Virus record (IMG/VR): IMGVR_UViG_3300037047_000246
Source: a virus
Lineage: Duplodnaviria; Caudoviricetes
Strand: one strand, 5' to 3'
DNA: 64,000 nucleotides
Below the pieces are notes generated by a model. That model ran no database searches and was not told the DNA's origin. It saw nothing but the letters and a program-made list of their open reading frames with translations. Each line of letters begins with the position of its first letter. Position 1 is the stretch's first letter. Shown in pieces: positions 13,461 to 51,201 of the stretch. The position numbers and the translations under genes are program-made.

Positions 13461-14990
13461 ATGGTGGACTGGACTGACTTTTTAAACAAATCGGAAACTC
13501 TTCGGCAGTTCGGGTACTCTATGCCGGATAAAGATGCGCAGGACTGCTTCGCCAATTGTGCCTTGTGCAACGAAGCAATTCGCACCACGCGCAGGGCACT
13601 GCGCCGCACTGTGCGTAAAAGGTGTACGTACAGGTGCGGCCCATGCATTGCCAGATCCGACGAAGGTCGCCTAGCTCGATCGCGCCAAGCTAAAGCGGTG
13701 TGGGGAGATCCAGAGATTGCCCGCGCCATACAAGACAAGAACGCACAAAACGCCAGATCTGCGGCTGGCCGGCAGCAGCGCTCTATGCAAGCCAAACTTG
13801 CTTGGGCGACGCCAGAGTTTGCGAGGTTGCACAGAGCGCGCATAGCAACTTTGTTCAAATCGGCTGAACATCGCAGACTTGTTGCAGAGCGCAATAAGTC
13901 AGATTACGCGGCAAATCCGGAAGAATACCTGAAAACCAAGACAGCTGCGCTGCGCTCAGTGCAGGCCAAAGCGGCGCACAAAGCAGCTTTGGCCAAACCA
14001 GAGTACAAACAGCTGCATGCAGAACTGGCTCGAGCTCGTTTTCAAGATCCAGTTTACAAGGCCAAAATCGCTGCTGGGCTCGAAGGTTTCCCCCGCGGAG
14101 GGCGGCAGTCTGCGCCGGAAGTGGCTGTGCGAGATGTGTTGACTGGACTCGGTTGCGAATTCATCTACAACAAATCCCTAGGACCATATAACTTCGATTT
14201 TTTCATCGAGAAGCTAGATTTGTTCGTTGAAGTACAAGGTGAATACTGGCACACGTTGCCTAACAACGAACGCCGAGATAAAGCCAAGTATGCTTATTTG
14301 CGAAGCACCAGGCCCGCATCGAGGATAGTGTACATATGGGACTATGACCTGGTGACTGGCGCGGCTAGCGCTAAACTGGCACAAGCCGTCGGTGTGGCAT
14401 CTTTGCCAGTGCAAGACTTTTGTTTTCACGAAATAGCTTTAAGGGTTGTCGATTCGACGACGGCCAAGAATTTTCTCAACACCTGGCACTACGCACAATT
14501 TGGGAAATCGGGCAAATTCATAATCGGGGCATTTCTGGGTGACCAACTGGCGGCGGTAGCCAAACTGGGTCCAGTGTCACGCAAAGAAGTGGCCACTTCC
14601 CTAGGATCCAATCCTCGAGAAACATTTGAACTGGATCGACTGTGCATCCATCCTATGAGGCAAAAGAAAAACTTTGCTTCATACTTCCTTAGTCGAGTCA
14701 CCACACTGTTTTTCAACGCGTTTCCTGGTGCGATGCGCGTTGTTGCTTTTTCTGATGAGACGTTTGGGCACGACGGCACGGTGTATAAGGCCTGCAACTG
14801 GTCCCAAACGGGCACAGTGCGACCCGACTACATGTACGTGCGAAATGACGGTTGGTCTATGCACAAGAAAACGCTGTACAACCAAGCCCTCTCGGTGCAC
14901 ATGACCGAGAAGCAGTACGCGCAACAAAATGGATGGACGAAAGTGTTCGGCAAATGCAAGCACAAGTTCGTGCTTGAAAGGTCAAAGTAG
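13461..14990 (+). CDS. Free-standing endonuclease (DUF559/Vsr-like PD-(D/E)XK) with N-terminal helical repeats and a C-terminal GNAT/Mom-like domain (subfamily A)
   Basis: 'FDFFIEKLDLFVEVQGEYWH' nuclease core, then 'FLNTWHY...ELDRLC...VAFSDETFGHDGTVYKACNW'. Paralogous to 49345-51201. Confidence 0.75.
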   Translation: MVDWTDFLNKSETLRQFGYSMPDKDAQDCFANCALCNEAIRTTRRALRRTVRKRCTYRCGPCIARSDEGRLARSRQAKAVWGDPEIARAIQDKNAQNARSAAGRQQRSMQAKLAWATPEFARLHRARIATLFKSAEHRRLVAERNKSDYAANPEEYLKTKTAALRSVQAKAAHKAALAKPEYKQLHAELARARFQDPVYKAKIAAGLEGFPRGGRQSAPEVAVRDVLTGLGCEFIYNKSLGPYNFDFFIEKLDLFVEVQGEYWHTLPNNERRDKAKYAYLRSTRPASRIVYIWDYDLVTGAASAKLAQAVGVASLPVQDFCFHEIALRVVDSTTAKNFLNTWHYAQFGKSGKFIIGAFLGDQLAAVAKLGPVSRKEVATSLGSNPRETFELDRLCIHPMRQKKNFASYFLSRVTTLFFNAFPGAMRVVAFSDETFGHDGTVYKACNWSQTGTVRPDYMYVRNDGWSMHKKTLYNQALSVHMTEKQYAQQNGWTKVFGKCKHKFVLERSK

Positions 14991-16181
14991 CGAAATCATG
15001 TCTGCGTGGTCAGCGCCTGTGCCGATCAGCACTACGGGGACGTTGGCTGCAGCTTCAATCCTGTCCACCATCGACCTTGTTTTGGAGGATAGTTTATTGA
15101 ACGCTTCCCTTCCTCCGCGAAGGCCGTGATCGCGCCAGTCCAAATACTGCACGAAATTCAGCGCCAGCTTTGTTGCGCCGTTCGTTGCGACAGCGTCTTC
15201 CAAACCCACCCAAGAGAACGTGCAAACACGTCGCACCCTCTTTGTGACTGTCGTCCTTTCGCGCTCCATGAGTGCAGCTGCCTCTTCGTCTGGCATTCCA
15301 GCTTCCTGTGCTATTTGCTGCCAGGTCAGCTCTTTGCAGTCAGTGTAGAAATCGCCAGAGTACCCCGTCTGCACGCCGTTCTCCTGCACGTTGCCGACTC
15401 GGATGCCAAAAGTACGGAGATTCAGGTATACGTCGCCCACCATGGAAGCTGGCACTGCCATGTCGTCCATGGCCTTTTGGGCGGTGCAGTTGCGCGAGGT
15501 GCAGTGCGGGTAGCTGGAGCCATGGTCGACGGACAAGGCGTATCCTTGGGAACCTTCATGCAGCCAAGTGTTGCCCGCCTTGATCAGACCTTGCACGCTC
15601 GACCTGAACTGCATGCCGTCCAAAATGCGCACTCTGGACTCAAACTCGTGCATGAGCTCGAGCATGCCTGGTCTAGCATGTCCTGTCCATTCAGCCACTT
15701 GTTTGGACCCAACAAGCAGGCATTCCTTCCTGCGCAGAATCTTGTCCACCATGGACGCGGAGCACCCCTGCATCGTGGAAGCGATATGTTTGGTTGACCC
15801 GGAGCCGTTTCTTTCTTGCTCCGCATGGTCCGGAGTGACGACGGAAGCCCTGCTGTGTAGGCACAAACTAGGTCTGCCTGTTTCCACCCATTCGTCGAAC
15901 AGCCTATCCCATGTGCCTTGCTCGGTCACGGTCAGTCCGGAGGCCGGAGACAGCCACCCCTGCATGTTGACGCCTTTGGCCTTCCGAAGTGCCAAAGCAG
16001 TGGGGATGGCTTTCGCCACGAACTTGTAGTTGCCAGACAAGAACGTGTGGCCTGCGTTGGGGAAATTCGAAGACGAGACGTGGCTGACGCCGTACGCGTC
16101 TGCCAGCCAAGCGGACACCTTGCCTTTGCCGGACGATCCCCAGAACCCGTCTAACAAAATGTTGAACTTGCCAGGTTGCAT
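14982..16181 (-). CDS. purZ: Adenylosuccinate-synthetase homologue with PurZ-type (2-aminoadenylosuccinate synthetase) signatures
   Basis: 'WGSSGKGK' (Ser in place of the PurA catalytic Asp of WGDEGKG), 'NAGHT', 'EGSQG', 'YPHCTSR', 'RTFGIRVGN', 'TTVTKRVRRV', and 'LNFVQY' in place of PurA TKLD. Confidence 0.75.
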   Translation of the reverse strand: MQPGKFNILLDGFWGSSGKGKVSAWLADAYGVSHVSSSNFPNAGHTFLSGNYKFVAKAIPTALALRKAKGVNMQGWLSPASGLTVTEQGTWDRLFDEWVETGRPSLCLHSRASVVTPDHAEQERNGSGSTKHIASTMQGCSASMVDKILRRKECLLVGSKQVAEWTGHARPGMLELMHEFESRVRILDGMQFRSSVQGLIKAGNTWLHEGSQGYALSVDHGSSYPHCTSRNCTAQKAMDDMAVPASMVGDVYLNLRTFGIRVGNVQENGVQTGYSGDFYTDCKELTWQQIAQEAGMPDEEAAALMERERTTVTKRVRRVCTFSWVGLEDAVATNGATKLALNFVQYLDWRDHGLRGGREAFNKLSSKTRSMVDRIEAAANVPVVLIGTGADHADMISLL

Positions 16182-16510
16182 TATTTTTCCTCCGGCGAGG
16201 CCGGTTTGTGCGACGTTTGCTCAGAATCTGCAGAAAACATCACCATCCCTTTGTACTCTCTGACCCCTGAAACGCCATCGGACGAGACGTCCTGGCCCTC
16301 CGGTTCGTACACCGCCAAGACCAGCTCGCCCGGACCAAGCGAGTTGCCGCTGTCCTCGGCCAGCTGCTGCAGCAGCTGGCCGAGCGTACCCCCGGTGCGC
16401 AACGACAGCAGCTCCGGCACGTCTCTTTGCCAACCGCCGGCGCCGAGGTACCAGGTACCTTCTGGGGCCGAGTACATGTCGTTAATCTGTATCACTGCCA
16501 GTTTCAACAT
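16181..16510 (-). CDS. Hypothetical protein coupled upstream of the purZ-like gene
   Basis: The stop (TAA) overlaps the purZ ATG; 109 aa. Confidence 0.6.
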   Translation of the reverse strand: MLKLAVIQINDMYSAPEGTWYLGAGGWQRDVPELLSLRTGGTLGQLLQQLAEDSGNSLGPGELVLAVYEPEGQDVSSDGVSGVREYKGMVMFSADSEQTSHKPASPEEK

Positions 16511-17891: not shown

Positions 17892-17969
17892 TCGACCGGT
17901 TTTTTGCTCTGAACGGCAAGAAGCTGACTGATCAGTCGTGGCTGTCAACAACAAACATAGGAGGTTGGT

Positions 17970-24556: not shown

Positions 24557-27305
24557 GCGTTGCAATGTTGTTGAGCTGCAGCGTCCGACCGCAGCAAAGG
24601 AAGCTGAGTCCGCTGGCCGTTGGACCAGATTTTTCACAAAGGAAGAAGTACACCCTTTTGACGAAATCCGGTGGAAGATTACCGATGCCAGGATAGTCAG
24701 CTCTGACGGCGTTGTCGTGTTTGAGCAGCTCGGAGTTGAGGTGCCTGATTGGTGGAGCGTCAACACGATCAACATCGTTGCTGACAAATACTTCCGGGTG
24801 ATTGATGGAGAGAAAGAAAACTCCGTCAAGCAAATGATCTTTCGAGTTGCGGTAGTCATGCGTAAGTGGGCTGCGGAGCAGGGTTATTTCAACTCTGATC
24901 ACGACGCCCAAGTCTATGAAGACGAACTGTGCTACGTGCTTCTGCACCAGTACGGAGCATTCAACTCGCCCGTCTGGTTCAACATCGGAGTGCCTGGTCG
25001 CAAGCAACAAGCCTCCGCTTGTTTCATTTCTAGCGTCGACGACACGCTTGACGCCATCATGGAGTTTCAGAAATCTGAAGTCAAAATTTTCGCTGGCGGT
25101 TCTGGTTCTGGCGGAAACTTGTCCAACTTGCGCTCGTCTTGGGAACGTCTGTCGTCTGGTTCATATGTGTCTGGCACGCTGGCATGGATGGAGGGCTTCG
25201 ACAAATTCGCCAAGGCCATGAAGTCCGGCGGCAGCACGCGCAACGCGGCCAAGATCATTGTGCTGGATATGGACCACCCAGACATCCTTGAAACAAAGGA
25301 CGGCCGCCCCGGATTTATTCGTTGCAAAGCGGCCTCGGAGAAAATTGCCCAGGACCTGGCTGCTCTGGGCTACGGCGTGGCCTACGACGATCCAAATTCA
25401 GTTTACAAGCTTGTGCCGTTCCAGAACGCCAACCATTCGGTCAGCGTCGACGATGCCTTCATGAAAGCTGTGGTCGACGACAAAGAATGGTGCACTGTGG
25501 AACGCACGACAGGCAAGGTTGTGCACACTTACAAAGCGCGCGACATGTGGCGCGAAGTGGCAGAAGCTGCTTGGACTTGCGGCGATCCAGGCATTCAGTT
25601 CACAGATACGATCAACGATTGGCATACCACTCCAGCTGCCGGTCGCATTCGTTCAAGTAACCCGTGTGCTGAATATCTCAACATAGACAACACAGCTTGC
25701 AACCTGGCGGCTATCAATCTGACAAAATTCTTTGACGGCCGAAAATTGGCGACAGACCGCTTGGCGCATGTGGTGCGTGTGCTAGTGACGGCGCAAAATG
25801 CCATAATTGCCATGGCCGAGTATCCGACGCAGGCTATCGCTGACAACTCGATCAAGCTGCGACCGATCGGGCTGAACTATGGCAACCTTGGGTCGCTCAT
25901 CATGAAGCTCGGATATGGCTACAATTCGGACGAGGGGCGGGCTGTTGCTGCTCGCACAGCGAGCTTGATGACAGGCATGGCGTATGTGGCGGCAGCAAAG
26001 TTGGCTTCCCGCATCGGTGCCTTCCCTGCTTTCCATGACAACAGGGAGCCCATGCTTGGCGTCATTGCTAAACATGCCGCTGCTGATGCCGACGTTTGCC
26101 AGCGCTGGAGTTTGCATCATGACCCGCTGGGGAAAGACGTCAAATCGTGCAGTGCATCCATATGGCGCGAAGCGCTAGAGCTCGGCCGCAAATATGGCTA
26201 CTCGGTGTCTCAAACTACGCTGCAGGCGCCGCTCGGCACGCTGTCGTTTTTGATGGAGATGGACACGACTGGCGTCGAGCCCATGTTCTCTCTGGTTACC
26301 TACAAATCTCTGGTCGGCGGCGGGGCGCTCAAACTGGTGAACTCGGCAGTGCTAGGTGCTCTGGAAGGTCTAGGGTACTCTAAGTCGCAGATTGAAGTCA
26401 TCTGCAAGTACATTGAGACCAATGACTACATAGAGGGAGCGCCTGGCCTCAATCCAAAGCATCTGCCTGTGTTCGACGGCGCCATGGCTTGCGGCCCCTC
26501 TGGCAGACACTTGTCTCCGATGGCGCATGTGGATATGTTGGCGGCCATCCAACCGCTCATCACTTGCTCCATCAGCAAAACTGTCAACCTAGCTAAAAAC
26601 ACCACTCCAGAGGAAATCGCCGACATTTACCTGCAGGCTTGGAAGCTCGGGGTCAAGTGCATCGCACTGTATCGGGACGGCAGCAAGATGTCGCAGCCTC
26701 TCGTAACAAAGACTTCTGAAGCTCCCACCGTGTCAATCGCGCCTCCTAGCGAGGAGGCGACACGACGCCGGCATCTGCCCGCGGATTTGGAAGGACACCG
26801 GCATCGGTTCACCATGGGCGGCTGCAAAGGGTATATCATGATGAACGAATACCCGGACGGCAGTTTGGGCGAGGTGTTCTTGCGTCTCGGCAAGACCGGC
26901 ACGACAATGGCTGGATTTATCGATGGGTTCACGCAGCTGCTTAGCATTTCTCTTCAGTATGGCGTGCCGCTAGACAAGATGATCCGATCGTTCGTGCATA
27001 CGAAGTTCGAACCGTCTGGGTTTACAGACAATCCGCAGATCCGGTTCGCCGACAGTCTGTTCGATTACCTGTTCAAACTGCTCGACATACGATATTTCGA
27101 AGGTCGCAACTCAGGCTTGGCAGACAAACTTGCGGCGATGGCATCTGAATCCGAGGACGCCGGCTCGCTGCCGCCGGTGTCCATGCCGGCTCCTGAACCG
27201 GTCAACGTCAGCGCCCCCATCTGTCCCAACTGCGGCAGCATGACGCGCCGGGTCGGCACCTGCCACCTGTGTGCGACGTGTGGAACAAGCACTGGATGCA
27301 GCTGA
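24534..27305 (+). CDS. nrdJ: Class II (B12-dependent) ribonucleotide reductase with C-terminal TSCPD domain and zinc ribbon
   Basis: 'FNSPVWFN', 'ASACFI', 'GSGSGGNLS', 'SSNPCAEY', 'TACNLAAINL', 'RPIGLNY', 'ISKTVN', 'LYRDGSK', C-terminal CPNCG..CATCG. GAGGAGG SD. Confidence 0.95.
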   Translation: MSQVVEVERCNVVELQRPTAAKEAESAGRWTRFFTKEEVHPFDEIRWKITDARIVSSDGVVVFEQLGVEVPDWWSVNTINIVADKYFRVIDGEKENSVKQMIFRVAVVMRKWAAEQGYFNSDHDAQVYEDELCYVLLHQYGAFNSPVWFNIGVPGRKQQASACFISSVDDTLDAIMEFQKSEVKIFAGGSGSGGNLSNLRSSWERLSSGSYVSGTLAWMEGFDKFAKAMKSGGSTRNAAKIIVLDMDHPDILETKDGRPGFIRCKAASEKIAQDLAALGYGVAYDDPNSVYKLVPFQNANHSVSVDDAFMKAVVDDKEWCTVERTTGKVVHTYKARDMWREVAEAAWTCGDPGIQFTDTINDWHTTPAAGRIRSSNPCAEYLNIDNTACNLAAINLTKFFDGRKLATDRLAHVVRVLVTAQNAIIAMAEYPTQAIADNSIKLRPIGLNYGNLGSLIMKLGYGYNSDEGRAVAARTASLMTGMAYVAAAKLASRIGAFPAFHDNREPMLGVIAKHAAADADVCQRWSLHHDPLGKDVKSCSASIWREALELGRKYGYSVSQTTLQAPLGTLSFLMEMDTTGVEPMFSLVTYKSLVGGGALKLVNSAVLGALEGLGYSKSQIEVICKYIETNDYIEGAPGLNPKHLPVFDGAMACGPSGRHLSPMAHVDMLAAIQPLITCSISKTVNLAKNTTPEEIADIYLQAWKLGVKCIALYRDGSKMSQPLVTKTSEAPTVSIAPPSEEATRRRHLPADLEGHRHRFTMGGCKGYIMMNEYPDGSLGEVFLRLGKTGTTMAGFIDGFTQLLSISLQYGVPLDKMIRSFVHTKFEPSGFTDNPQIRFADSLFDYLFKLLDIRYFEGRNSGLADKLAAMASESEDAGSLPPVSMPAPEPVNVSAPICPNCGSMTRRVGTCHLCATCGTSTGCS

Positions 27306-28954
27306 CCCTACGGGACCTTTGGACCGAGGCGCAGTGGGGTAAACTGCGCCTCGTTCCTCCTTTTCCTGATTGGAGTGCCAAATCACACAACAAAGCATTG
27401 TGGCAATGCGAGTGTGGCCGGCGCAAGCAGATCATAACCCAAAATGTGACTAGCGGAAGGACAACCTCCTGCGGACAGTGTTCAGTCCTGTCTGCAGAAT
27501 ACTGGACTGCGACCAAGTTCGGCCACTTGCGCATGCAGACGCCTCAAGATATGCATCCGAAATCTTCTCGGAAAGTGGCTTGGCTGTGTGACTGCGGGCG
27601 TAGCAAGCTCATCGTGGTGCACAGCGTAGTCAACGGCGCCACTGTGCGATGCGGCCAGTGCAACGTTGTGGACCCTGGCCTGGCGCAGTTTGGGCTGTGG
27701 ACAGTGTCGCTGACCGGCAACGAGACTCAAAGCAGTGATGCGAAAATTCAGGCTCGATGCCGGTGCGGCCTGCAGTCTGAGGTTCGTTTAGCTGACCTCA
27801 CATCAGGCAAATCTAAAAGCTGTGGTCGGTGTTTTGAACGCGCCATGCAGTGGTATGAAGATCACCGAGATCAACTGCGTCAACTGCGCCTTCCATTTCC
27901 GCCAGATGCCTTGCCGAGCGGGTGGATCGTGGCCCGGTCGGCGGTTGTGCGTAGCAGCGTGCCGTTTGACGCTGAGTGCGGGGCCTGCGGTCGCTCGTAC
28001 AGGCCAACGTGGAACAATATTAGACAAGGCAAATCGCTAACTTGTGGCTGCGTTTCATCAAGAGTGTCGCATGGCCATAAACGACTAGCGGACTTCATAG
28101 TGTCGCTTGGTTTTGATGTTGAAGTGGAACACGCTATTGGCGGGCTAAAATTCGACGTTGTGGTGCCTAGTGCGCGCCTGGCGATTGAATTCCAGGGGCT
28201 CCACTGGCATTCTGCAGAGGGGTCGCAGACGAGGGACTTTAAAAAATTTGCTTTGGCCAGGAGCCTTGGTTACGGCGTAATATGTTTATATGAAGACGAA
28301 TGGCACGAGCATCGGCATAAAATCGAGAACTTGTTGCGCAGCCGGCTCGGTGTGAGCCGACCCGTCAGGTGGCGCGGATCCAAGTGCACGGTGTCTTGCG
28401 TATCGAGTGCGGACGCGGATGCCTTTCATGACAGTTACCACTATATTGGAGCCGCCCGATGTCCAGTCAACTACGGGGTGTTCGTTGAAGGAAACCTCGT
28501 TGCTTGCGCTTCTTTCAGGCGTCCAACCCGCCAGTCCAAATATCAGTACGAACTGGCGAGAATGTCCTCCTGCCCAAATATCACGGTGCATGGCGCATGG
28601 TCCAAGGTGATGCAAGCTTTTGCTTTTGACCACAAGCCCGAATCCGTCGTATCATTCTCTGACGATCGGTTATTTGACGGGCTCGTGTATGGCAAGATCG
28701 GATTTCGGCGCGACGGGAAAGTGAAGCCGGACTATTACTGGACTGACGGGAAGCGACGTTGGCATAAATCGTCGATGCGCAAGCGTGGTACTGAGCGCAC
28801 AAGTGGCAAGACAGAGGGGCAACTCAGGTCTGCCGTCGGTTTGTGCAAAATTTGGGACTTGGGTAAAACGAGGTGGGTATGGCCGCACACTTCCAATTCA
28901 GTGGTAAAGGAAGCTGACAGACGAGGAGATGGCCGCGGTCGTTCCCATGTCTAA
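27296..28954 (+). CDS. Free-standing endonuclease with Cys-rich N-terminal repeats and a GNAT-like C-domain (subfamily B)
   Basis: Repeated 'FG.L...W.C.CG...SCG.C' modules; nuclease core 'FDVVVPSARLAIEFQGLHWH'; 'YHY...YELARM...SFSDDRLFDG.VY...IWDLGKTRWVW'. Confidence 0.75.
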   Translation: MQLTLRDLWTEAQWGKLRLVPPFPDWSAKSHNKALWQCECGRRKQIITQNVTSGRTTSCGQCSVLSAEYWTATKFGHLRMQTPQDMHPKSSRKVAWLCDCGRSKLIVVHSVVNGATVRCGQCNVVDPGLAQFGLWTVSLTGNETQSSDAKIQARCRCGLQSEVRLADLTSGKSKSCGRCFERAMQWYEDHRDQLRQLRLPFPPDALPSGWIVARSAVVRSSVPFDAECGACGRSYRPTWNNIRQGKSLTCGCVSSRVSHGHKRLADFIVSLGFDVEVEHAIGGLKFDVVVPSARLAIEFQGLHWHSAEGSQTRDFKKFALARSLGYGVICLYEDEWHEHRHKIENLLRSRLGVSRPVRWRGSKCTVSCVSSADADAFHDSYHYIGAARCPVNYGVFVEGNLVACASFRRPTRQSKYQYELARMSSCPNITVHGAWSKVMQAFAFDHKPESVVSFSDDRLFDGLVYGKIGFRRDGKVKPDYYWTDGKRRWHKSSMRKRGTERTSGKTEGQLRSAVGLCKIWDLGKTRWVWPHTSNSVVKEADRRGDGRGRSHV

Positions 28955-29947: not shown

Positions 29948-31063
29948 TTATGTGGTTTCCAGGTCGAGATTTGCCGCCAGGTAAGGAATGACGTCGTTCC
30001 TGCGCTCTACCAACACTCTGCATCCGCGGAACAATTTGAGCTCGGTGAACATTTTGAGATTGTGCAGAGACACGCTCTCTATGGTGACTCCTCCGATATG
30101 GACTGGCTCGACTTTAGCTACCGGGCAGACACGTCCGGTGGGGCCTACTTGCCACACCACGTCCAAGACCCTGGTTTCCGCTTTTTCCGACTCGAATTTC
30201 CAAGCGATCTGACCAAGTGGACACTTGTCGACATGACCAAGCTCTTCAAGCAGCTTCATGTCGTCCACTGAGACCACCATGCCGTCGATGTCGTAGGCCA
30301 CGGAGGAGCGCCAGGCCGCAGATTTATCAAATTCTTCCACGATGAGCTCGACAGTACCTTGGCAGATAGGCGGCACTTTGAATCCTAGGCGCTCTAGCCA
30401 GCTGAACACTAGCACCATGGAGTCGGGGCGTTCTTCAGCTTGAGCCCAATATGCTACGAACTCCAAATCTTCGCACGCGGCGCCCGCTCCTTTCTTCTCC
30501 CGCATTTTGGCTGCCGCCGTGTTGCGCGGGTTGGCATACTTCGCCGCATATTTGTTCTGAAACATGGACCGGAGCATGACCGCTTCGCCGCGCACTGTGG
30601 CGTCGATCTCAGCAAGTTTGCCATCCAACTCTAGTCTGTGCGGCACTGACGGAATGCGCCGCACATTGGTGGTCACGTCTTCTCCAACTATGCCGTCGCC
30701 GCGAGTGACCCCTCGAACAAGCTTTCCGCCTCTATACACTAGCTCAAGAGACGCTCCGTCTATCTTGTGGGTCATGACGAAGGCGCCGGTCGCTCCTGTC
30801 TTGGCTGCCCAGCCGCGGAATTCTTCAGCGCAGTGCACTTTGCTGAGCGACCCCATCAGGATTTCGTGGCGGACCTTTTCCCAGACGGAGACTGATGGAG
30901 GGGCGGCTCCTACTGCACGAGTTTCAAAGTGCTCCGGGCATATTTGCCGAAGTCTGTCTCTGGCTTCGTCGTACTCGTGATCAGGGACCAGCGGGTCCAA
31001 GTTGTAGTACGCTTGTCTCCACAAAGATAATTTGGCAGCAAGTTTTTTGGCTTCTTCGTCCAT
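29948..31063 (-). CDS. ligA: NAD-dependent DNA ligase, N-terminal part (domain Ia + adenylation + OB fold)
   Basis: 'AYY..DPLVPDHEYD', 'HKIDG' (motif I), 'TRGDG.VGEDVT', 'VRGE', 'NPRN', 'DIDGMVV', 'AWKF', 'WQVGPTG', 'SLHN', 'RRNDVIP', then a stop. Confidence 0.92.
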   Translation of the reverse strand: MDEEAKKLAAKLSLWRQAYYNLDPLVPDHEYDEARDRLRQICPEHFETRAVGAAPPSVSVWEKVRHEILMGSLSKVHCAEEFRGWAAKTGATGAFVMTHKIDGASLELVYRGGKLVRGVTRGDGIVGEDVTTNVRRIPSVPHRLELDGKLAEIDATVRGEAVMLRSMFQNKYAAKYANPRNTAAAKMREKKGAGAACEDLEFVAYWAQAEERPDSMVLVFSWLERLGFKVPPICQGTVELIVEEFDKSAAWRSSVAYDIDGMVVSVDDMKLLEELGHVDKCPLGQIAWKFESEKAETRVLDVVWQVGPTGRVCPVAKVEPVHIGGVTIESVSLHNLKMFTELKLFRGCRVLVERRNDVIPYLAANLDLETT

Positions 31064-31084
31064 GGAACAAAATACAGTTGGCAA

Positions 31085-33025
31085 TTACGTCAGCTGCATC
31101 ACCCACCGCTTCTTTCCCAGGTCCCAAATCTTCGTGTAACCCTGAGACTCCCTTAGTTTGCTTTCTGTCGCCTCGCATCCAGGCGGTTTGCGCAAGGCGC
31201 TTTTGTGCCATCTTTTTTGGCCGCGCGTCCAGTAGTAGTCAGGAGCAACGTCGCCGTCGAAGACAAAACCTAGCTTTTCGTAGACCGAGCCAGTGAACAG
31301 CCTGTTATCAGAGAAGCTCACCACAGACCCGCTGCGACCTTCGGCAAACTCACGAAGCAGTTTGTGCCAAATTCCGTGCACCCGGTACCTGGGATTCGAA
31401 GCCATGCGCACCAGTTCCCAACTGTGCTTAGACTGGCGCGTAGGCTTTTTGAAGCTCACGCATGCCACCACTTCTCCGTTCACTGCTGCGCTGAAATTGA
31501 ACTTGGCGCAGCAGCCGCCAAGGTAGTGGTGTTTGTCGTAGAAAGCGTCCGCTTGCGCAGCCTGGATTCGCCCCACTTGCGTCTTGCTCGGGCGCATAGG
31601 TAAACAGTCCAGTCGGCCGACCCTGTTCAAGATCAGGTTCCCAAACACTTCCCGTTTGTTCGCCCATTCGTCTTCGAATATGGACAACATCCCCCACCCG
31701 CATCGCATTGCTTGCGCAAACTTCCGCGCGTCTCTATTGTGAGACTGTTTTCCGGAGTGCCACCGAAGTCCGTTGTGCTCTATGAGAATGCGCTTGCTCG
31801 GCACGCCCACGTCGTACTTCATTCCGTCGACTTCGAACTCTGCCTGTGCATGCACTCCGTTGGCAGCAAGGAAGTCAAGGATGCCTTGTTGCCCGGAGGA
31901 GACTCGGCTGCTCGCACATCCGCAGTTCAAGGAAATTCCCCGCTTGATGTCGTTCATGCGAGGTCTGTATGTTGCGCCACATGCCGGGCACATGGCGTCG
32001 AACGGCGCGTTTCCGCTGACTATCGGCTGCAGCGGCACAACGCCCCCAGGCGGGAAGTCTGACGGAGACACTGGGTACTTGAGCTGACTCAGCTCAAGTA
32101 CGTTGCTGGTGTGCCAGTCTTTTGCGTTTTTGCGGCATTTGCCGCAGCTTTTCGTGACTCCGTTGACGACGTTGGAGACTGTGGCTACGATTTCGTTGCC
32201 GCATGTGCACACCCATACGGTTTGCTTGACTGAATACTTCTTCAGAGCTGTTGGCTTTTTGACGCGGAGCCTGCCAAATGTTCGTCGCTCAGACTCACCG
32301 AGCGTCACTTCGCAGCAGTTTCTGCATCTGCGCGACTTGCTTGACGCGGCGTACTTGACTACGAACAAGTCTCTTTGCCCGCACTTTTCACACACGAAAA
32401 ATTTTCTTGCTGAAGACCTGACGGAAGCAGGTTCGTCGTCGTATACGAACCCTCCAGACTTGTCGCCTCTCTTCAGCATGTCGCACTGACCGCACGTCGT
32501 GCGTCCTGTTTTGAACGCTGAGAAGGTCATGCTGAACGTCGAACCGCATCTGCACCTGAAGGACGCTTTTAGCCTGGATTTGAGTGACCAGGACTGCGGC
32601 AGTCCGTCTTGAAGCAGCTCCGGGACGTCCGCCATCCAGTCTGACGCTGTTCTGACCAGATGCCGTTTTCCGCGCTGTGGTGCTTGCATCTTGTACAAGC
32701 AGCCGCAACTGCTCTTTATGCCAGATGCCACGCGGCTGAGAGGCGCATGCGTGGTGTTGCCGCAGTCGCACACCCAAGGCAGCTGTTGTCTGCCCATGTT
32801 GACCACTTCATCTGCGCGGCATCCCAAGGTCAGCTTGCCGTACCGAACTATGCCGGACTTTTTCCAAACGTGCAGCGCGCAACTGCCGCATGTGGGCGTT
32901 CTGTTCGCGAAAGTGTTCCACCTGACCAAAACCTCGCTCGGATTTCCGCAAGAGCAAACGCACGCGACGAACTTCTTGGAAAAGCGCGATTTTGGCAGTT
33001 TGTCCGGGTTTATCGGCTTTAACAT
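31085..33025 (-). CDS. Free-standing endonuclease, subfamily B (between the ligase halves)
   Basis: Cys-rich repeats; 'YDVGVPSKRILIEHNGLRWH'; 'HHY...WELVRM...SFSDNRLFTG...IWDLGKKRWV'. Start is ATG 33025 or 33076. Confidence 0.75.
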   Translation of the reverse strand: MLKPINPDKLPKSRFSKKFVACVCSCGNPSEVLVRWNTFANRTPTCGSCALHVWKKSGIVRYGKLTLGCRADEVVNMGRQQLPWVCDCGNTTHAPLSRVASGIKSSCGCLYKMQAPQRGKRHLVRTASDWMADVPELLQDGLPQSWSLKSRLKASFRCRCGSTFSMTFSAFKTGRTTCGQCDMLKRGDKSGGFVYDDEPASVRSSARKFFVCEKCGQRDLFVVKYAASSKSRRCRNCCEVTLGESERRTFGRLRVKKPTALKKYSVKQTVWVCTCGNEIVATVSNVVNGVTKSCGKCRKNAKDWHTSNVLELSQLKYPVSPSDFPPGGVVPLQPIVSGNAPFDAMCPACGATYRPRMNDIKRGISLNCGCASSRVSSGQQGILDFLAANGVHAQAEFEVDGMKYDVGVPSKRILIEHNGLRWHSGKQSHNRDARKFAQAMRCGWGMLSIFEDEWANKREVFGNLILNRVGRLDCLPMRPSKTQVGRIQAAQADAFYDKHHYLGGCCAKFNFSAAVNGEVVACVSFKKPTRQSKHSWELVRMASNPRYRVHGIWHKLLREFAEGRSGSVVSFSDNRLFTGSVYEKLGFVFDGDVAPDYYWTRGQKRWHKSALRKPPGCEATESKLRESQGYTKIWDLGKKRWVMQLT

Positions 33026-33657: not shown

Positions 33658-34485
33658 ATGGCAGAACTCCAGTTTTTCTCAATACCTGACATTTGCCCCG
33701 TTTGTTCAAGTTCCCTGACCATTGAGGGAGACTTTCTGTACTGCCAGGCGAAGTCGTGTCCAGTGCGCTTGTCGGGGGCCATCAAAGTCTGGGTGGATAG
33801 ACTTGGCCTGTTGCATTGGGGAGATGCTCTCATTGGATCGCTGACTGATCCAGAGAAAACTTCGTCAATTCAGTCGGTCGGTGACCTATATAGATTGTCT
33901 GTTGAAGACATCCAAGAACACTGCTCTGGCCCGAAGATGGCCAAAAAGTGCTGGAAAACGCTGCACGACAATACTTCTGTGCCGCTTGAGATAGTTCTTG
34001 CCGGCATGAATATTGCGAACCTCGGCCTCGCTACAGCCACGGACATCGTTAAAGCTGGTCACGATTCCATAGACAAGGTCCTAGCTCTGACGTTGGAACA
34101 GCTCCAAGAGATCCCCAACATCGGCGAGATAACGGCTCTTCAAATTAGAAACGGGCTTGACTCCCGTCGCGACACCTTGCTTGACTTGGCTTCCATACTC
34201 GACATAACGCTGCCAATTTCCGGACCCCTTCGTGGCAAAAAGGTGTGCATCACAGGCGACGTCTGGGCCCCTCGCAAGGCTGTGCAGAAAATGGTGACTG
34301 CCGCTGGCGGTCAGGCGGTCGATAGCGTATCAAAAGACACGAGCTTTCTGGTTTGCGATGACAGCAGCAGCACCAGTTCTAAGGCCAAGCGCGCAGCTTC
34401 CTACGGCATCCCAATCATAAAGGGTGCCGATTTGAAAAACATTTTGGACGGCGTTGCCACTTGTGACGAGATCGCAAAAAGATAG
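33658..34485 (+). CDS. ligA: NAD-dependent DNA ligase, C-terminal part (Zn finger + HhH + BRCT)
   Basis: 'CPVCSS...YCQAKSCP', HhH 'GDLYRL', 'LGLATA', 'IPNIGEITA', BRCT 'LRGKKVCITG...GGQAVDSVSKDTSFLV...SKAKRA..YGIPII'. Confidence 0.9.
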   Translation: MAELQFFSIPDICPVCSSSLTIEGDFLYCQAKSCPVRLSGAIKVWVDRLGLLHWGDALIGSLTDPEKTSSIQSVGDLYRLSVEDIQEHCSGPKMAKKCWKTLHDNTSVPLEIVLAGMNIANLGLATATDIVKAGHDSIDKVLALTLEQLQEIPNIGEITALQIRNGLDSRRDTLLDLASILDITLPISGPLRGKKVCITGDVWAPRKAVQKMVTAAGGQAVDSVSKDTSFLVCDDSSSTSSKAKRAASYGIPIIKGADLKNILDGVATCDEIAKR

Positions 34486-36756: not shown

Positions 36757-38553
36757 ATGCCTTCCTTCATTTGTGGACAGCAGTTCGGGATTTTCACATA
36801 TGAGGGCGATCAAGTTCATCTGACCAGGCGTCAACTCGGGCAACGGGGTCAGTTCAGGTGTAAATGCGGGGCTTTGTCGACGCTGTCGTTCACGAGCGTG
36901 ATGTACGGCGCCTCGGCTCACTGCAGCAAATGCGCGCACACGCATCTTTTGCCAGGATCGCGTTTCGGACGGCTGACTTACGACGGAGCGTCGAAGAGTG
37001 TCGCTCCTGGTAGCACCGCCAAGGTCGAGTTTGTTTGCGACTGCGGCCGGCGCAAGTCAATAGTACTCAGGAGCGTATTAAGCGGAGCGTCCAAGAGCTG
37101 CGGCGACTGCTCCGCCATCGCTCTTACGAACGGTGCCGCCTACGGCAAGCTCACTTACGTCGGACCTGAGCTGCGTGTCAAACCGAGCTCTCGCCAGCGG
37201 GTCCAGTGGTCGTGCTCTTGCGGACGAAGCGTCAGGCGCACAGTGAAAAGCGTACTGAGCTCTGCTGGCAGCGCCGGACTTAGGGGGTGCGGCAAGTGCA
37301 GCGAAGTTCATTTGGAGCCTGGCGACAAATATAAGTGGTTCGAGTATGCAGGGCCTTCTGCGGACGTGTTGCCCAGCAGCACTCAGTGCTGCCGCTTCAA
37401 GTGCAGGTGCGGAGCAGTCAAAGACTACCAGATTCAGCATATCACTCGCGGCCAAAAGACGTGCGGGGAGTGTTTCAACTCAGCGCTTGACTGGTACTCG
37501 AGAAACCGCGATCTGCTGCGTTCAGCGCAGTCGTTCCTTCGGCAGGATTTTCCTGGCGGCGGACTGATCCCTCTGGCAAACATCGTCAATGCCTCTCAGC
37601 CGTTCGACGCCAAATGTCCACTTTGCGGCTCCACGTACAGGCCGCGACTCAGAGACATAAAACGCGGTGTTTCTTTGTCGTGCGGATGCACAAACTTCGC
37701 CGTATCCAGTTTGAATTTGCAACTGTTGGACTGGCTCAAGTCTATTGGCGTGGACGCGGTGCCTGAGCATTCGGTTGGCGGAAAAAGATTCGACGTGGCT
37801 GTGCCAGCATCGAATTTGCTCATAGAAATAAACGGACTCAGATGGCACTCGATGCCAGGAGCCAAAACCAGGGACCTGTCGAAGCACAGGCATGCCGCGT
37901 CCTTCGGCTTCGAAACCCTTATGTTGTTTGAAGACGAGTGGGTGAACAAACGGCAGATCATGTGCGGCATCATCGCCAACAGGTTGAGGATCAACGAGGC
38001 CCGCTGCGCAAGGGCATCCAAATGCGTGGTGGAACGCGTGCCTGTGGCTGCAGCCGACTTGTTTTACGACAGTCACCACTACATCGGCAAAGCAAAAGCC
38101 GGACTGAACTATGCCGCGTTCCTTGGCGGCGTTCAAGTGGCCTGCATGTCGTTCAAACGCCCCACAAGGCAAACTTCCAGACATGAGTGGGAGCTCGTGC
38201 GCATGGCGTCTTCACGCGAGGTCCGCGTGCACGGGGTGTGGTCGAAGCTCATGCACGCTTTTGTGTTGGACAAAGCTCCGGCGTCCGTTGTATCATTTTC
38301 AGACAATCGTCTTTTTACAGGCGGCGTTTACTCTCGCATCGGATTCACTTTGGATGGCGATGTGCCTCAGGACTATTACTGGACCAAGCAGCGGTCTCGC
38401 TGGCATAAATCTGGGCTCCGAAAAACGGATTCGGAGAAAGCCACGGGTAGCACCGAAACTGCACTCAGGACAGCCCAGGGGTACCGGAAGATCTGGGATC
38501 TAGGCAAAAAACGGTGGGTTTGGAGAGACTCATGTCAGAAATCAGATTTTTAA
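36757..38553 (+). CDS. Free-standing endonuclease, subfamily B
   Basis: Repeats 'FGRLTY.G...F.CDCG...SCG.C'; 'FDVAVPASNLLIEINGLRWH'; GNAT-like C-domain ending 'IWDLGKKRWVW'. Confidence 0.75.
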   Translation: MPSFICGQQFGIFTYEGDQVHLTRRQLGQRGQFRCKCGALSTLSFTSVMYGASAHCSKCAHTHLLPGSRFGRLTYDGASKSVAPGSTAKVEFVCDCGRRKSIVLRSVLSGASKSCGDCSAIALTNGAAYGKLTYVGPELRVKPSSRQRVQWSCSCGRSVRRTVKSVLSSAGSAGLRGCGKCSEVHLEPGDKYKWFEYAGPSADVLPSSTQCCRFKCRCGAVKDYQIQHITRGQKTCGECFNSALDWYSRNRDLLRSAQSFLRQDFPGGGLIPLANIVNASQPFDAKCPLCGSTYRPRLRDIKRGVSLSCGCTNFAVSSLNLQLLDWLKSIGVDAVPEHSVGGKRFDVAVPASNLLIEINGLRWHSMPGAKTRDLSKHRHAASFGFETLMLFEDEWVNKRQIMCGIIANRLRINEARCARASKCVVERVPVAAADLFYDSHHYIGKAKAGLNYAAFLGGVQVACMSFKRPTRQTSRHEWELVRMASSREVRVHGVWSKLMHAFVLDKAPASVVSFSDNRLFTGGVYSRIGFTLDGDVPQDYYWTKQRSRWHKSGLRKTDSEKATGSTETALRTAQGYRKIWDLGKKRWVWRDSCQKSDF

Positions 38554-47908: not shown

Positions 47909-47953
47909 AGCAAATGTGCTCGCACGGCGCTGTTCGAGCTCGTTGAAAACTGC

Positions 47954-48388
47954 TCAGGGGATGTTCACCATAACCTCAGAGTGCCACCACTCTGAGATGA
48001 CTTCATGAGCGGAGAAAGGCACCTTTACGGGTGCTGCCAGGCCGCCTCCTGAAATCACGGCATACCCCATGTCCCGGTCTTCAAGGTCAACAGCGTCGAC
48101 CCTGATGGGTTCCATGACAGGATTTTGCGGGTCTTGCTGCTCTTGATTCCCGGACTGCTTACGGGCCGCGGCATCGGCCTGAAACTTGTTCTCAGCGTCG
48201 CATACCATCTGGACTATCGACAAGAGATCTCCGCCTGAGTTCACCACATCCATGAACGTTCCGTTTGCGTCCACGGCGGCGAGCATTCGGCGTAGTTCAG
48301 CGGCCACAAGCACCTTACTGGGCTGCTTGGAATTGGCTACTCGTTGAGCGATTTGATGCAACTTAGCTGCAAATTGGGCCGGGTTCAT
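47954..48388 (-). CDS. Hypothetical protein sharing an N-terminal motif with 2009-2320
   Basis: MNPAQFAAKLHQIAQRVANSKQPSKVLVAAELRRMLAAV. Confidence 0.65.
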   Translation of the reverse strand: MNPAQFAAKLHQIAQRVANSKQPSKVLVAAELRRMLAAVDANGTFMDVVNSGGDLLSIVQMVCDAENKFQADAAARKQSGNQEQQDPQNPVMEPIRVDAVDLEDRDMGYAVISGGGLAAPVKVPFSAHEVISEWWHSEVMVNIP

Positions 48389-48551
48389 GTTCTGGCCAGT
48401 CAATAAAACATTCAAGATGCCTTATTGACTGGTAGTGTAGTGTAGGCAATTCCTCTTCCTGGGTAATGGCCTGTCGCGATACGCACATCTATACGCAGAC
48501 TTTCCTCCCAAACCGATACGCATACCCACACCACCCAGGCTGGGGTCGGAA

Positions 48552-49331
48552 ATGTCTAACTATGTGATCATTCAGAATCCGAGTGATTTGTCTGCAAGGT
48601 TCAGCAACAGGGATCGTCTCGGATGGGACGGCCAGGAGCTGGACGTAGACGAACTGATAGAGCAGAATCTTGCGCCAGAAGAAGAGGAGGAGATAGACGG
48701 GACATGTCTCCCTGACTTCAGCCTGATCGAGCGATATCTAGACAGGATCCCGGACCGAGAAGCTGACCTGATCACCCTGTACTACAGGGACAGGATGAAG
48801 CAAGAGCAGATAGCAAAGCTGTTTAGGATCACACAAGCCGCAGTGTCATATAGACTTCATAGAGGCATTCGGCGCATTCAGTTTCTGCGAACCATTCCTG
48901 AGCTCATGCGGGACCAGTTCGAGCTTGAGCTCGGTCCGAAGTTCTCTGATCAAGACAGGGAAATTCTGTGGCGCATGTACGAGACGACGTGCCAATCGGA
49001 GATCGCCAAGCAAATGAACCTCACGCAAGGGCGAGTCAGGCACAGGTTCTTCAGATCGCTGGCGAGGGTCAAAGAGCTCATTCGCGAAGAAGTGCGCGAG
49101 GAGCAAGTGAGGATGCAGCTCAAGCACAAGAAAACAGGCCTGGACCCGGAGTCCGATGAAGCCAAGAAGGCAATATCGGACGTGGCCAACGCTGCCATCG
49201 ATTCGTCCAAGTATGCCAAATATTGGACAGTGTTCTTCGCCATTTCAGACAAACACTTCAACATACTTCACGAGGTGTCACTCCCTCAGTTCTTAGACCG
49301 CGGCGACGCTCAGATAATGACTATCAGGTGA
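48552..49331 (+). CDS. Sigma70-like factor / tandem region-4 HTH protein
   Basis: 'LDRIPDREADLITLYY...KQEQIAKLFRITQAAVSYRL' and a second 'SDQDREILW...QSEIAKQMNLTQGRVRHR'. Confidence 0.75.
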   Translation: MSNYVIIQNPSDLSARFSNRDRLGWDGQELDVDELIEQNLAPEEEEEIDGTCLPDFSLIERYLDRIPDREADLITLYYRDRMKQEQIAKLFRITQAAVSYRLHRGIRRIQFLRTIPELMRDQFELELGPKFSDQDREILWRMYETTCQSEIAKQMNLTQGRVRHRFFRSLARVKELIREEVREEQVRMQLKHKKTGLDPESDEAKKAISDVANAAIDSSKYAKYWTVFFAISDKHFNILHEVSLPQFLDRGDAQIMTIR

Positions 49332-49344
49332 TGTAACTTGGCGC

Positions 49345-51201
49345 ATGGCCAAAGACCTATCAGAACTGGGCATTCCGCAGTCCATAGTTAAAAATCCAGG
49401 ACAGGGCCCATTCAAAGGCAGCACAGTACTGACCGTCGTGTGCGCTTGCGGCGTCGAGATAGAGCTCAAAGTCAGCTCCATTCTTCGCACGATGCGGCGC
49501 GTCGGTCACTACAGGTGTCTGTCCTGCGGGATGCAGGCCAAACACAAAGATCCTGCTTATGCGAGGAAGCAGAGAGCCGGATCTTCCGACTCGTGGTCTC
49601 AAGAGCGCAGATTGCGCCAGTCATTGATATCCAAAAAGATGTGGACCGACGATAACTTCAGACTCCGGTTGACTGAAGCGTCGACCAGCGCTTGGGCAGA
49701 AGATGGTAAAAGGCAAAAGGCTTCCAAATTTGCCATCGGACTATGGCAGGACAGTGAGTACGTCGCCAAGCATGCACTTGCCCGCAGCACCGATGAGGCC
49801 CGAGAAACTCGTTCCAACGCCGCCAAAGCAGTGTGGCGTCGACCTGAATATGCTGAACAGCAGTTGGCAATCAAGGCGTCGGCAGAGCACGTAGGAATCC
49901 AGCGCAGACTCGCGCTGGAGCGGTTTGATAACCCCGAATATCGCCAGCACATTGCCGAATCTTTGCGCACCTACTGGTCGGATCCTGTGCTCAGAGCAGA
50001 AATGTCGGCTCGAGTGCTGTCTTGGTGGGATGACCCGGCGTACCGGGAAAAGCAAGCTCGCGCCGCCGCAAGTCCGGACTTGATCGCAGTTAAGTCCGAA
50101 AATGCAAGAGCGCAGTGGCAGAAGCCTGAGACCAGGCAGGCCATCATTGACGGCATCAAGAAGGTGTGGAGGGACCCGGCCTATAGAGCTCGCGCATCGC
50201 AGATAGTCAAAGCGCTGTGGCAAAATGATGAATTTAAGAAGAAGCAAGCTGTTGGCAGGGCAGATATGCTCGCGAACGGCAAAGACAGCATACTGGAACG
50301 CACCGCCCAGATCTTGCTGGACTCACTGAAGATCCCATACGTGCGTCACCACGTGGTTGGGTATTTTGAATTCGATCTGCTCATTCCGTCGCACAATGTG
50401 CTTGTTGAATGCAACGGCGAGTACTGGCATTCGATGCGTAAGGATCGCGACGCTGCCAAGTTCACATATGTCGACACATACTTCCCTGAGTACAGCGTCT
50501 TGTATCTGTGGGAGCGCGACTTCCTCAACCCGAATCTGATTCGCCATAAGCTTTTGCGTGCGCTGTTTGGCGACGATGGTGGGCACCACGGAGAATGCGC
50601 AGATTTCAGCTTCGAAGACCTGGAAATTAAGCTTATGGACCCGAGAGCCAAAGCAGACAAGTCGTATTACTCCTATGCTGAAGAGTTTCTTCAGTCTTTT
50701 CACTATGCCGGGTTTGGCAGGTCGGCAAAGGCGGCGTACGGCGCGTACCTTGGCGACACTTTGATCGGCGTGTGCAAATTTTGTCCGCCCATAAGGGCAG
50801 AGGTGGCCACTTCGATGGGTATGGCGCAGAGCCAGGTGCTGGAGCTAGACCGGTTCTGCATCCACCCAAGCTACCAGAAGAAGAACTTTGCTTCCTGGCT
50901 CGTTTCCAGATGCGCAAAGCTGGCTTTCTCAGCCCACCCCGGCGCGGCTTGCCTGGTCAGCTTCGCAGACTCCACGTTCGGGCACGTCGGCACCATCTAC
51001 AAAGCGGCAAACTGGAAGCAGGTTCGCATTGTGCCGCCGGACTACCACTATGTTAGCCCGGAGGGCTTCGTCGTGCACAAGAAGACGCTGTACGACCACG
51101 CTTCTCGCGTAGGGCGCAAAGAGGCGGAGTATGCGGCGCAGTTTGGCTACGCGAAAGCGTACGGCAAGTCGAAGACCAAATTCCGATTCGATAGGCCGTA
51201 A
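49345..51201 (+). CDS. Free-standing endonuclease, subfamily A (helical W.DP.YR repeats + DUF559-like + GNAT/Mom-like)
   Basis: Repeats 'W.DPAYR'; 'FDLLIPSHNVLVECNGEYWH'; 'FLQSFHY...ELDRFCIHP...SFADSTFGHVGTIYKAANW'. Confidence 0.75.
   Translation: MAKDLSELGIPQSIVKNPGQGPFKGSTVLTVVCACGVEIELKVSSILRTMRRVGHYRCLSCGMQAKHKDPAYARKQRAGSSDSWSQERRLRQSLISKKMWTDDNFRLRLTEASTSAWAEDGKRQKASKFAIGLWQDSEYVAKHALARSTDEARETRSNAAKAVWRRPEYAEQQLAIKASAEHVGIQRRLALERFDNPEYRQHIAESLRTYWSDPVLRAEMSARVLSWWDDPAYREKQARAAASPDLIAVKSENARAQWQKPETRQAIIDGIKKVWRDPAYRARASQIVKALWQNDEFKKKQAVGRADMLANGKDSILERTAQILLDSLKIPYVRHHVVGYFEFDLLIPSHNVLVECNGEYWHSMRKDRDAAKFTYVDTYFPEYSVLYLWERDFLNPNLIRHKLLRALFGDDGGHHGECADFSFEDLEIKLMDPRAKADKSYYSYAEEFLQSFHYAGFGRSAKAAYGAYLGDTLIGVCKFCPPIRAEVATSMGMAQSQVLELDRFCIHPSYQKKNFASWLVSRCAKLAFSAHPGAACLVSFADSTFGHVGTIYKAANWKQVRIVPPDYHYVSPEGFVVHKKTLYDHASRVGRKEAEYAAQFGYAKAYGKSKTKFRFDRP

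Follow-up and report, generated by a model that had tools for sequence, protein, structure and literature searches.

The DNA considered here is a 64,000-nucleotide stretch (hereafter the window) of IMG/VR virus record IMGVR_UViG_3300037047_000246 (Duplodnaviria; Caudoviricetes), a complete 362,524-bp jumbo phage record with terminal repeats. Between positions 13461 and 51201 the window carries five free-standing genes of predicted homing endonucleases, whose products share one plan: an N-terminal region of DNA-binding type, a Vsr-like (EDxHD) nuclease and a C-terminal GNAT domain resembling Mom, the DNA-modifying enzyme of phage Mu. The genes are assigned to the Hef type and fall into two subfamilies, A and B, as listed below.

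13461..14990, + strand: Hef-type gene, subfamily A, 509 amino acids; zinc ribbon C29-C62, Cys-poor repeat region, nuclease, Mom-like GNAT domain
27296..28954, + strand: Hef-type gene, subfamily B, 552 amino acids; at least three treble-clef Zn modules, nuclease, Mom-like GNAT domain
31085..33025, - strand: Hef-type gene, subfamily B, 646 amino acids; five or six Zn modules, nuclease, Mom-like GNAT domain
36757..38553, + strand: Hef-type gene, subfamily B, 598 amino acids; four Zn modules and a terminal one, nuclease, Mom-like GNAT domain
49345..51201, + strand: Hef-type gene, subfamily A, 618 amino acids; zinc ribbon, about ten W.DPEY-like repeats, nuclease, Mom-like GNAT domain

All five reading frames were confirmed to be uninterrupted, and their combined length of 8,784 bp agrees with the figure of about 9 kb given in an earlier note on this DNA. 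For three of the genes, a mechanical list of open reading frames (ORFs) allows earlier GTG/TTG starts, at 27269, 33199 and 36751. The note had also described a nuclease core followed by a Mom- or GNAT-like domain in each gene, and this description is borne out by the open frames, by Pfam, phmmer and Foldseek matches and by the retention of active-site residues. As to the N-termini, the Cys-rich repeats of the subfamily B genes are indeed present, as three to five or six CxC...CxxC treble-clef modules (PF14311). The subfamily A genes, for which helical repeats had been proposed, carry a single zinc ribbon and, after it, a Cys-poor region in which a W.DPEY-like motif recurs. The neighbours are likewise those that the note had named, with slight refinement: a purZ-like gene, nrdJ, the N-half of a split ligA, recD2, an sbcD-like gene and a CRISPR array (51381-52227). 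The 13461-14990 gene and the convergent purZ-like gene overlap by 9 bp at their 3' ends, and the start of the 27296-28954 gene falls 10 bp inside the end of nrdJ. The 31085-33025 gene directly precedes the N-half of ligA, which shares its strand, the 36757-38553 gene is flanked by recD2 and the sbcD-like gene, and the 49345-51201 gene is flanked by a sigma-like gene and the CRISPR array.

Database comparisons associate these proteins with known homing endonucleases. The three Cys-rich proteins match the PHROGs families phrog_559 and phrog_3339 over their full length with E values of 1e-51 to 1e-70. For instance, the 27296-28954 protein matches phrog_3339 at 6.8e-61 and phrog_559 at 1.3e-60, the 36757-38553 protein matches phrog_559 at 7.3e-66, and the 31085-33025 protein matches phrog_559 at 1.2e-70, together with the GNAT models PF13508/PF00583 and the structure 3r3p. 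Both families are annotated as homing endonucleases, phrog_559 being mislabelled as HNH, and members of phrog_559 are intron-encoded in Bastillevirinae (PMC11878797). The two subfamily A proteins match phrog_1384, annotated as 'Mom-like DNA modification protein'. Furthermore, tblastn aligned Campylobacter phage Hef71, Hef168 and a 'Hef-like homing endonuclease' over 77-87% of the query (E 1e-26 down to 5e-31), and these alignments span query residues of about 81-645, with the Mom-like tail included. At the nucleotide level, 22 kb of the window had no megablast match among GenBank phages.

The family to which these genes point has been described before. Hef ('homing endonuclease-like function') of the T-even phage U5 is reported to be an endonuclease that targets nrdB (cited in PMC2988022). 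Taylor et al. 2011 placed the Hef type in the Vsr-like EDxHD family (PMC3239194), and Hef-like genes have been annotated in Dickeya LIMEstone1 as F-LimIII, VII, VIII and X (PMC3296691). Like the Hef and Hef-like genes of T4-related phages, of the Campylobacter NCTC12673/CP220 group, of LIMEstone and of jumbo phages, the window genes combine a DNA-binding array, a Vsr-like nuclease and a Mom-like tail. They are also free-standing, multi-copy and located beside core genes, as are the known Hef and Hef-like genes (PMC3296691, PMC2988022). Unlike the Hefs of cultured phages, the window proteins are only about 24% identical to them, and the carrier phage differs in being uncultured, in its 362-kb genome and in having a purZ-like gene and a Cas12-like CRISPR locus. 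Moreover, its genome holds 13 copies as compared with 10-11 matching places per Campylobacter phage genome. The five genes are new members of an already described family, for which both the fusion and the cut-and-protect idea have been published, and neither a core function of the phage nor a new defence system should be read into them.

A nuclease of the Vsr/REase_MTES_1575 type is located in the middle of each protein, with Pfam scores under the curated cut-offs. The domain boundaries, the matches that define them and the predicted active-site residues are as follows.

14103..14360, + strand: Vsr-like (EDxHD) nuclease domain of the 13461-14990 gene; Pfam Vsr residues 215-265, MTES_1575 residues 221-283 and the catalytic residues D246, E257, Q259, H264, D273
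28055..28345, + strand: Vsr-like nuclease domain of the 27296-28954 gene; PF18741 residues 262-350, Vsr residues 254-307; D287, E298, Q300, H305, D314
31643..31888, - strand: Vsr-like nuclease domain of the 31085-33025 gene; PF18741 residues 380-461, phmmer to 3r3p at residues 410-454; D405, E416, N418, H423, D432
37723..37965, + strand: Vsr-like nuclease domain of the 36757-38553 gene; PF18741 residues 323-403, Foldseek match to 3r3p; D346, E357, N359, H364, D373
50287..50574, + strand: Vsr-like nuclease domain of the 49345-51201 gene; phmmer to 3r3p at residues 318-395; D344, E355, N357, H362, D369

The catalytic domain of I-Bth0305I (3r3p), the EDxHD prototype, was matched by phmmer against PDB sequences (E 0.0012-0.013) and by Foldseek with the subfamily B model (TMt 0.73, root-mean-square deviation 3.0 over 95 columns). 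Equivalents of its residues D196/E206/N208/H213/D222 are kept in all five window genes, with N or Q at position 208; in one paralog outside the window, E replaces the last active-site D. The window proteins resemble I-Bth0305I in nuclease fold, in these five residues and in having the DNA-binding region N-terminal to the nuclease. I-Bth0305I differs in being intron-encoded and 266 amino acids long, with NUMOD/helix-turn-helix motifs and without a Mom-like domain (PMC3239194). F-CphI was weighed as a possible relative and set aside because its nuclease is of the Endo VII type (PMC6083498), although this kind of nuclease is matched by the two HNH/EndoVII-Mom paralogs that lie outside the window.

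The C-terminal domains were aligned with Mu Mom from NC_000929, and seven residues (H58, Y59, R111, S124, D149, R151 and Y159) were checked in each gene.

14427..14987, + strand: Mom-like GNAT domain of the 13461-14990 gene; PF25680 residues 325-490, phrog_1384 residues 323-505, Mu Mom alignment; H343, Y344, R393, S407, D432, T434 (at R151), Y442, six of seven
28388..28885, + strand: Mom-like GNAT domain of the 27296-28954 gene; Mu Mom alignment, homology to subfamily A across the whole domain; H382, Y383, R422, S436, D456, R458, Y465, all seven
31088..31585, - strand: Mom-like GNAT domain of the 31085-33025 gene; phrog_1384 residues 481-645, Acetyltransf_7, Acetyltransf_1, Mu Mom alignment; H500, Y501, R540, H554 (at S124), D573, R575, Y582, six of seven
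38005..38532, + strand: Mom-like GNAT domain of the 36757-38553 gene; Foldseek match to 8bv8; H441, Y442, R482, S496, D516, R518, Y525, all seven
50662..51198, + strand: Mom-like GNAT domain of the 49345-51201 gene; PF25680 residues 444-614, phmmer to Mu Mom 8bv8 at residues 445-561; H453, Y454, R503, S517, D542, T544 (at R151), Y552, six of seven

The nuclease and C-domain of one gene from each subfamily were modelled with AlphaFold2. For subfamily A (49345-51201, residues 305-618; mean predicted local distance difference test, pLDDT, 91.6) the best Foldseek match in the PDB was Mu Mom 8bv8 with E 7.7e-12, and for subfamily B (36757-38553, residues 300-598; pLDDT 91.0) it was again 8bv8 with E 6.1e-7. 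In both models Mu Mom outranks ordinary GNATs, the predicted template-modelling scores (pTM) being 0.78 and 0.84 for A and B, and helices between the late strands fit the helical insertion that follows the Y159 strand of Mom. Since Mu Mom is the best structural match in both models, the C-domain as modelled is of GNAT fold and Mom type and is a true relative of Mu Mom, in line with the resemblance proposed in the earlier note and contrary to its caveat that the fold might not be GNAT. At the level of profiles, the Pfam Mom model PF25680 (gathering cut-off 27.1 bits) gives 77.3 bits for the 13461-14990 protein and 77.9 bits for the 49345-51201 protein, with a match that extends to profile positions 169-188 of 202. 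Additionally, the 49345-51201 protein matches Mu Mom 8bv8 in phmmer against PDB sequences.

All seven residues are required for Mom activity, R151A and S124A being inactive, and the inactive Mom that was crystallised is mutated at S124 (PMC13219725). Equivalents of H58, Y59, R111, D149 and Y159 are invariant in the 13 paralogs of the genome and in 108/108 aligned homologs (60 of subfamily A and 48 of subfamily B), and the R151 equivalent is present in 48/48 subfamily B sequences. Mean pairwise identity in these two alignments is 51% and 58% for the Mom-like domain as against 44% for the nuclease. Judged from such comparisons, the Mom-like domain is clearly under selection, with a constraint at least equal to that on the nuclease. 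The combination is also widespread. A phmmer search with the Mom-like domain of the 36757-38553 gene returned 10,606 cluster representatives at E<=1e-3, of which 3,001 reached E<=1e-10, and among the best 150 matches the domain is almost always C-terminal in proteins of 400-700 amino acids. Short Mom-only proteins were also observed (P0247 and P0285).

In the whole genome, 13 genes carry a Mom-like C-domain. Eleven of them have a Vsr-like nuclease, which is accompanied by a zinc-finger array in eight and by a zinc ribbon and another N-terminal region in three. The remaining two, both outside the window, have two tandem HNH/EndoVII-type modules before the Mom-like domain:

G000:C1:122425-124053, + strand, and G000:C1:146128-147753, - strand: HNH/EndoVII-Mom paralogs (L014 and L015); phrog_2255, phrog_3106 and phrog_1035; PF25680 at 85-90 bits

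The presence of a second, unrelated nuclease partner in the same genome argues for a functional link of the Mom-like domain with DNA cutting. No stand-alone Mom gene was found in the genome, where all PF25680 matches lie in open frames of at least 522 amino acids. The number of modules in the N-terminal arrays varies among the copies, which is expected if each copy reads its own long site. In total, Hef-type DNA makes up about 9 kb of the window and about 23 kb of the genome.

The occupation of the sites was compared among relatives, using 12 related IMG/VR loci for the sites at nrdJ, ligN-orf180 and recD2-sbcD. The order nrdJ, ligA-N (minus strand), orf180, ligA-C, recD2, sbcD-like gene, Cas4-like nuclease gene and orf369 is common to all 12. 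At the 27296-28954 site, a Hef gene follows nrdJ in none of the relatives that have nrdJ. Between recD2 and sbcD (36757-38553 site) a Hef gene occurs in 0/12 relatives, the spacer being 37 bp in L006, the closest relative. At the ligN-orf180 site (31085-33025) no intact Hef gene is found among the 12 loci, and L006 has an empty spacer of 17 bp. A decayed subfamily B tail persists in L008 at exactly this site upstream of ligA-N (L008:3956-4501, minus strand), in the form of a 106-amino-acid ORF that encodes just the end of the Mom-like domain, and elsewhere a 51-amino-acid Hef fragment with an internal TGA lies at G001:C1:358916-359068. The 13461-14990 site is empty in L018 and L020 and is occupied in L019 by a 60%-identical ortholog with flanks that are 72-76% identical. 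The 49345-51201 site, compared in four relatives, is empty in G001, G002 and G006 and holds a 42%-identical Hef in G003. With identities of 60% and 42%, the orthologs that do occur have diverged further than their flanks (65-80%). Copy number varies as well: three complete relatives, for all of which both the Pfam Mom model and a subfamily B query were run, have one copy (and a fragment), none and six, as compared with 13 in this genome. G006 gave no match with the subfamily B query, the sole query run on it.

Because all five sites are polymorphic among syntenic relatives, copy number varies and remnants occur, the five genes are mobile insertions that are not vertically fixed, and their distribution is what one expects of homing endonuclease genes, which invade, become fixed and decay. 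Vertical conservation at fixed loci, which the earlier note had named as the outcome that would speak against it, is contradicted by this comparison, and its description of the genes as selfish homing endonucleases gains support from both the site polymorphism and membership in the Hef/EDxHD family.

Two further observations concern the recD2 region of the relatives. In L003, L004, L009 and L011 the recD2-sbcD spacer contains other inserts of 0.8-1.3 kb with no similarity to Hef, which marks this junction as an insertion hot spot. Separately, recD2 of L008 (L008:6001-9528) is a single ORF of 1175 amino acids with an in-frame insert of about 420 amino acids at residue 671, inside a helicase motif. 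The insert starts 'CVSPDTLVETPEGL' and looks like an intein.

Taken as a whole, the five genes are very probably free-standing homing endonuclease genes of the Hef type in the EDxHD/Vsr-like family, within a set of 13 nuclease-Mom genes. If they work like U5 Hef and I-Bth0305I, their variable array at the N-terminus, consisting of treble-clef modules or of a zinc ribbon with repeats, would recognise a long putative DNA site within or next to a conserved gene of replication or nucleotide metabolism. The nuclease domain would then cut the gene-less allele of a co-infecting relative, and recombinational repair would copy the endonuclease gene into the short intergenic spacer. On weaker grounds, the Mom-like domain may be active, acting locally at the site bound by its own array. 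Such local action is favoured because each copy has its own array, no free Mom exists in the genome, and the domain is joined to two unrelated nuclease folds.

The statements that can be made about the Mom-like domain itself are of graded strength. Its conserved residues make it somewhat probable that the domain is enzymatically active on nucleic acid. A more tentative suggestion is that it modifies a base at or near its own target and may thereby spare the carrier genome, as Iyer et al. 2021 proposed. The full form of this idea is unlikely: an active Mom-like tail would modify bases in a site-directed way, would provide each endonuclease with a portable immunity of its own and, if the genome contains 2-aminoadenine (Z), would have to act on Z rather than A or discriminate between them. 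If it were true, portable immunity would explain the wide spread of the domain and the occurrence of at least two assemblies (with Vsr-like and HNH/EndoVII nucleases) in one genome; and if the phage truly replaces A by 2-aminoadenine, Z would be a new substrate for Mom-type chemistry.

Several points weigh against an active, Mom-type tail. The sequence link to Mom is indirect in subfamily B, which scores 14.5 bits or gives no match with PF25680, under the cut-off, and whose profile aligns to the single Mu Mom sequence in hhalign with a non-significant E of 0.11. As this direct comparison is not significant, the connection of subfamily B with Mom is made through the fold search and through homology to subfamily A (hhalign A versus B: 99.9%, E 1.4e-31, spanning nuclease and Mom-like domain). 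Moreover, the R151 position is Thr in 57/60 subfamily A homologs, including both window genes, and at the S124 position, where most sequences have Ser, the 31085-33025 gene has His. Because of these substitutions a uniform Mom-type reaction is disfavoured; Mom chemistry in every copy is doubtful, and some copies may not perform it. The Mom dimer residue W48 is not conserved in the Mom-like domains. Classical free-standing homing endonucleases are not known to depend on modification for the protection of the genome that carries them. In the literature, no experimental test of the Mom-like half of any Hef was found.

It is possible, although less probable than not, that the Mom-like domain is non-enzymatic and serves as a DNA-binding, base-flipping or oligomerisation module that aids the nuclease of otherwise plain homing endonucleases. 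The loss of R151 in subfamily A and of S124 in one window gene would fit such a role, and so would the properties of the two prototypes: Mom binds double-stranded DNA and is modelled to flip out its target adenine (PMC13219725), and the double-strand break of I-Bth0305I needs dimerisation (PMC3239194). The pTM values of 0.78-0.84 also suggest that nuclease and Mom-like domain pack as one unit in the models. Nevertheless, five active-site residues that are invariant in 108 diverged homologs, in a domain more conserved than its nuclease, go beyond what a fold or a binding surface usually demands, and the loss of the W48 dimer residue also counts against this role.

That the genes are restriction-modification-like weapons, with Mom-like domains protecting the phage genome broadly and nucleases degrading host or competitor DNA, is improbable. 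This is the published prediction for jumbo phages (Iyer et al. 2021; PMC7824862), and it draws further support from the many copies per genome and from the ability of Mu Mom to shield DNA from many restriction enzymes. It fits poorly because complete syntenic relatives hold no copy or one, which marks the genes as dispensable and sporadic. The long modular DNA-binding array that each copy possesses suggests rare, long targets, and the location of copies in 17-40-bp spacers beside conserved genes, where they decay in place, is the pattern of a homing cycle; furthermore, the founding member Hef is reported to act as a homing endonuclease on nrdB (PMC2988022). Finally, domestication as vertically inherited replication or repair accessory factors is scarcely credible: the genes are indeed placed among replication and nucleotide-metabolism genes and co-oriented with their neighbours, but all five sites are polymorphic within an otherwise identical gene order and the orthologs have diverged beyond their flanks.

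The reading as Hef-type homing endonucleases with a Mom-like tail can be set against earlier proposals and known enzymes. Iyer et al. 2021 (Viruses 13:63, section 3.4.7) described the Mom domain of jumbo phages fused to an endoDNase of restriction-endonuclease (REase) fold and proposed that momylation protects the phage as the nuclease attacks other DNA, citing PA5oct with five such genes (PMC7824862). The window genes share this architecture and the same cut-and-protect idea. The published reading differs in being restriction-like, directed against host or superinfecting DNA, and in drawing no tie to Hef homing or to site polymorphism (PMC7824862). Additionally, the HNH/EndoVII-Mom variant of this genome is not the typical fusion of Iyer et al. 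2021.

That Mom uses Gly-tRNA(Gly), from which glycine is passed to the N6 of adenine in double-stranded DNA, was shown in 2026 (PMC13219725). Like Mu Mom (8bv8), the C-domains have a GNAT fold with an extra helical insertion and the five invariant residues, and most copies also have S124 and R151. Mu Mom is a Gly-tRNA(Gly)-dependent GNAT that makes N6-carbamoylmethyl-adenine; it is a stand-alone protein of 231 amino acids that dimerises via W48, is controlled by Com and modifies the genome widely. Unlike Mu Mom, the Mom-like domain forms the C-terminal third of a predicted site-specific nuclease (509-646 amino acids) in which W48 is not kept, and it departs from Mu Mom by Thr for R151 in subfamily A and His for S124 in one gene (31085-33025). 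An analogy is offered by the type IIG/IIL single-chain restriction-modification enzymes such as MmeI, which unite recognition, cleavage and base modification in one polypeptide. They differ in having S-adenosylmethionine-dependent methyltransferase domains and a role in cellular defence, and no sequence relation to them was found here. The general question raised by the family is what role is played by the conserved relative of a hypermodification enzyme that ends thousands of homing endonucleases, and it is now testable by way of the Mom-Gly-tRNA(Gly) finding. For such work this genome offers copies with all seven residues, copies lacking R151, one lacking S124, two HNH-Mom fusions and defined empty alleles.

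The proposal that Mom-like activity could interact with a Z genome depends on whether such a genome exists. The purZ-like gene (14982-16181, minus strand) matches phrog_1211, and the PurZ structures 6fm1 and 7odx (phiVC8 and S-2L) beat PurA in the comparison; a purZ-like gene is present in relatives too. A MazG-type (PF03819) pyrophosphatase was not found in a profile search of the genome, nor was a PF04447 pyrophosphatase, the latter being a weak negative as the PF04447 control also matched nowhere. The genome has a single HD-domain ORF (G000:C1:46319-46471), about 1 kb upstream of another Hef paralog. A Z genome is possible in view of the purZ-like gene; it is not established, because this gene is the only indication and neither a MazG-type nor a PF04447 enzyme was found. 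Since 2-aminoadenine retains the N6 amino group on which Mom acts, Mom-type activity on Z DNA would be conceivable if the Z genome is real.

Some features of the neighbourhood deserve mention in their own right. Two divergent genes, 29948-31084 (minus strand) and 33658-34485 (plus strand), encode an NAD-dependent DNA ligase that is divided behind its OB domain; they correspond to phrog_3869 positions 7-379 and 388-648 and leave no room for split inteins. Every relative in which both halves are seen has kept the split, whether or not a Hef gene lies between them. The idea that the 31085-33025 Hef gene had split ligA was rejected, as every relative has the split divergent ligase regardless of Hef. 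A ThyX-like ORF (10819-12213, minus strand) of 464 amino acids contains two separate Pfam Thy1 stretches and is long for ThyX, which suggests an insertion or an extra domain.

The CRISPR array at 51381-52227 comprises 12 repeats of 36 nucleotides with spacers of about 37 nucleotides. The listed ORF 51303-51683 lies across the array and is an artefact. A 797-amino-acid ORF (52202-54595) directly follows the array, whose last repeat runs into its listed TTG start. A search for related loci with this 797-amino-acid Cas12-like protein found none. The protein contains a Cas12f1-like TNB domain (PF07282), and array and ORF together make up a compact locus of Cas12 type that, in its jumbo-phage setting, recalls CasPhi/Cas12j.

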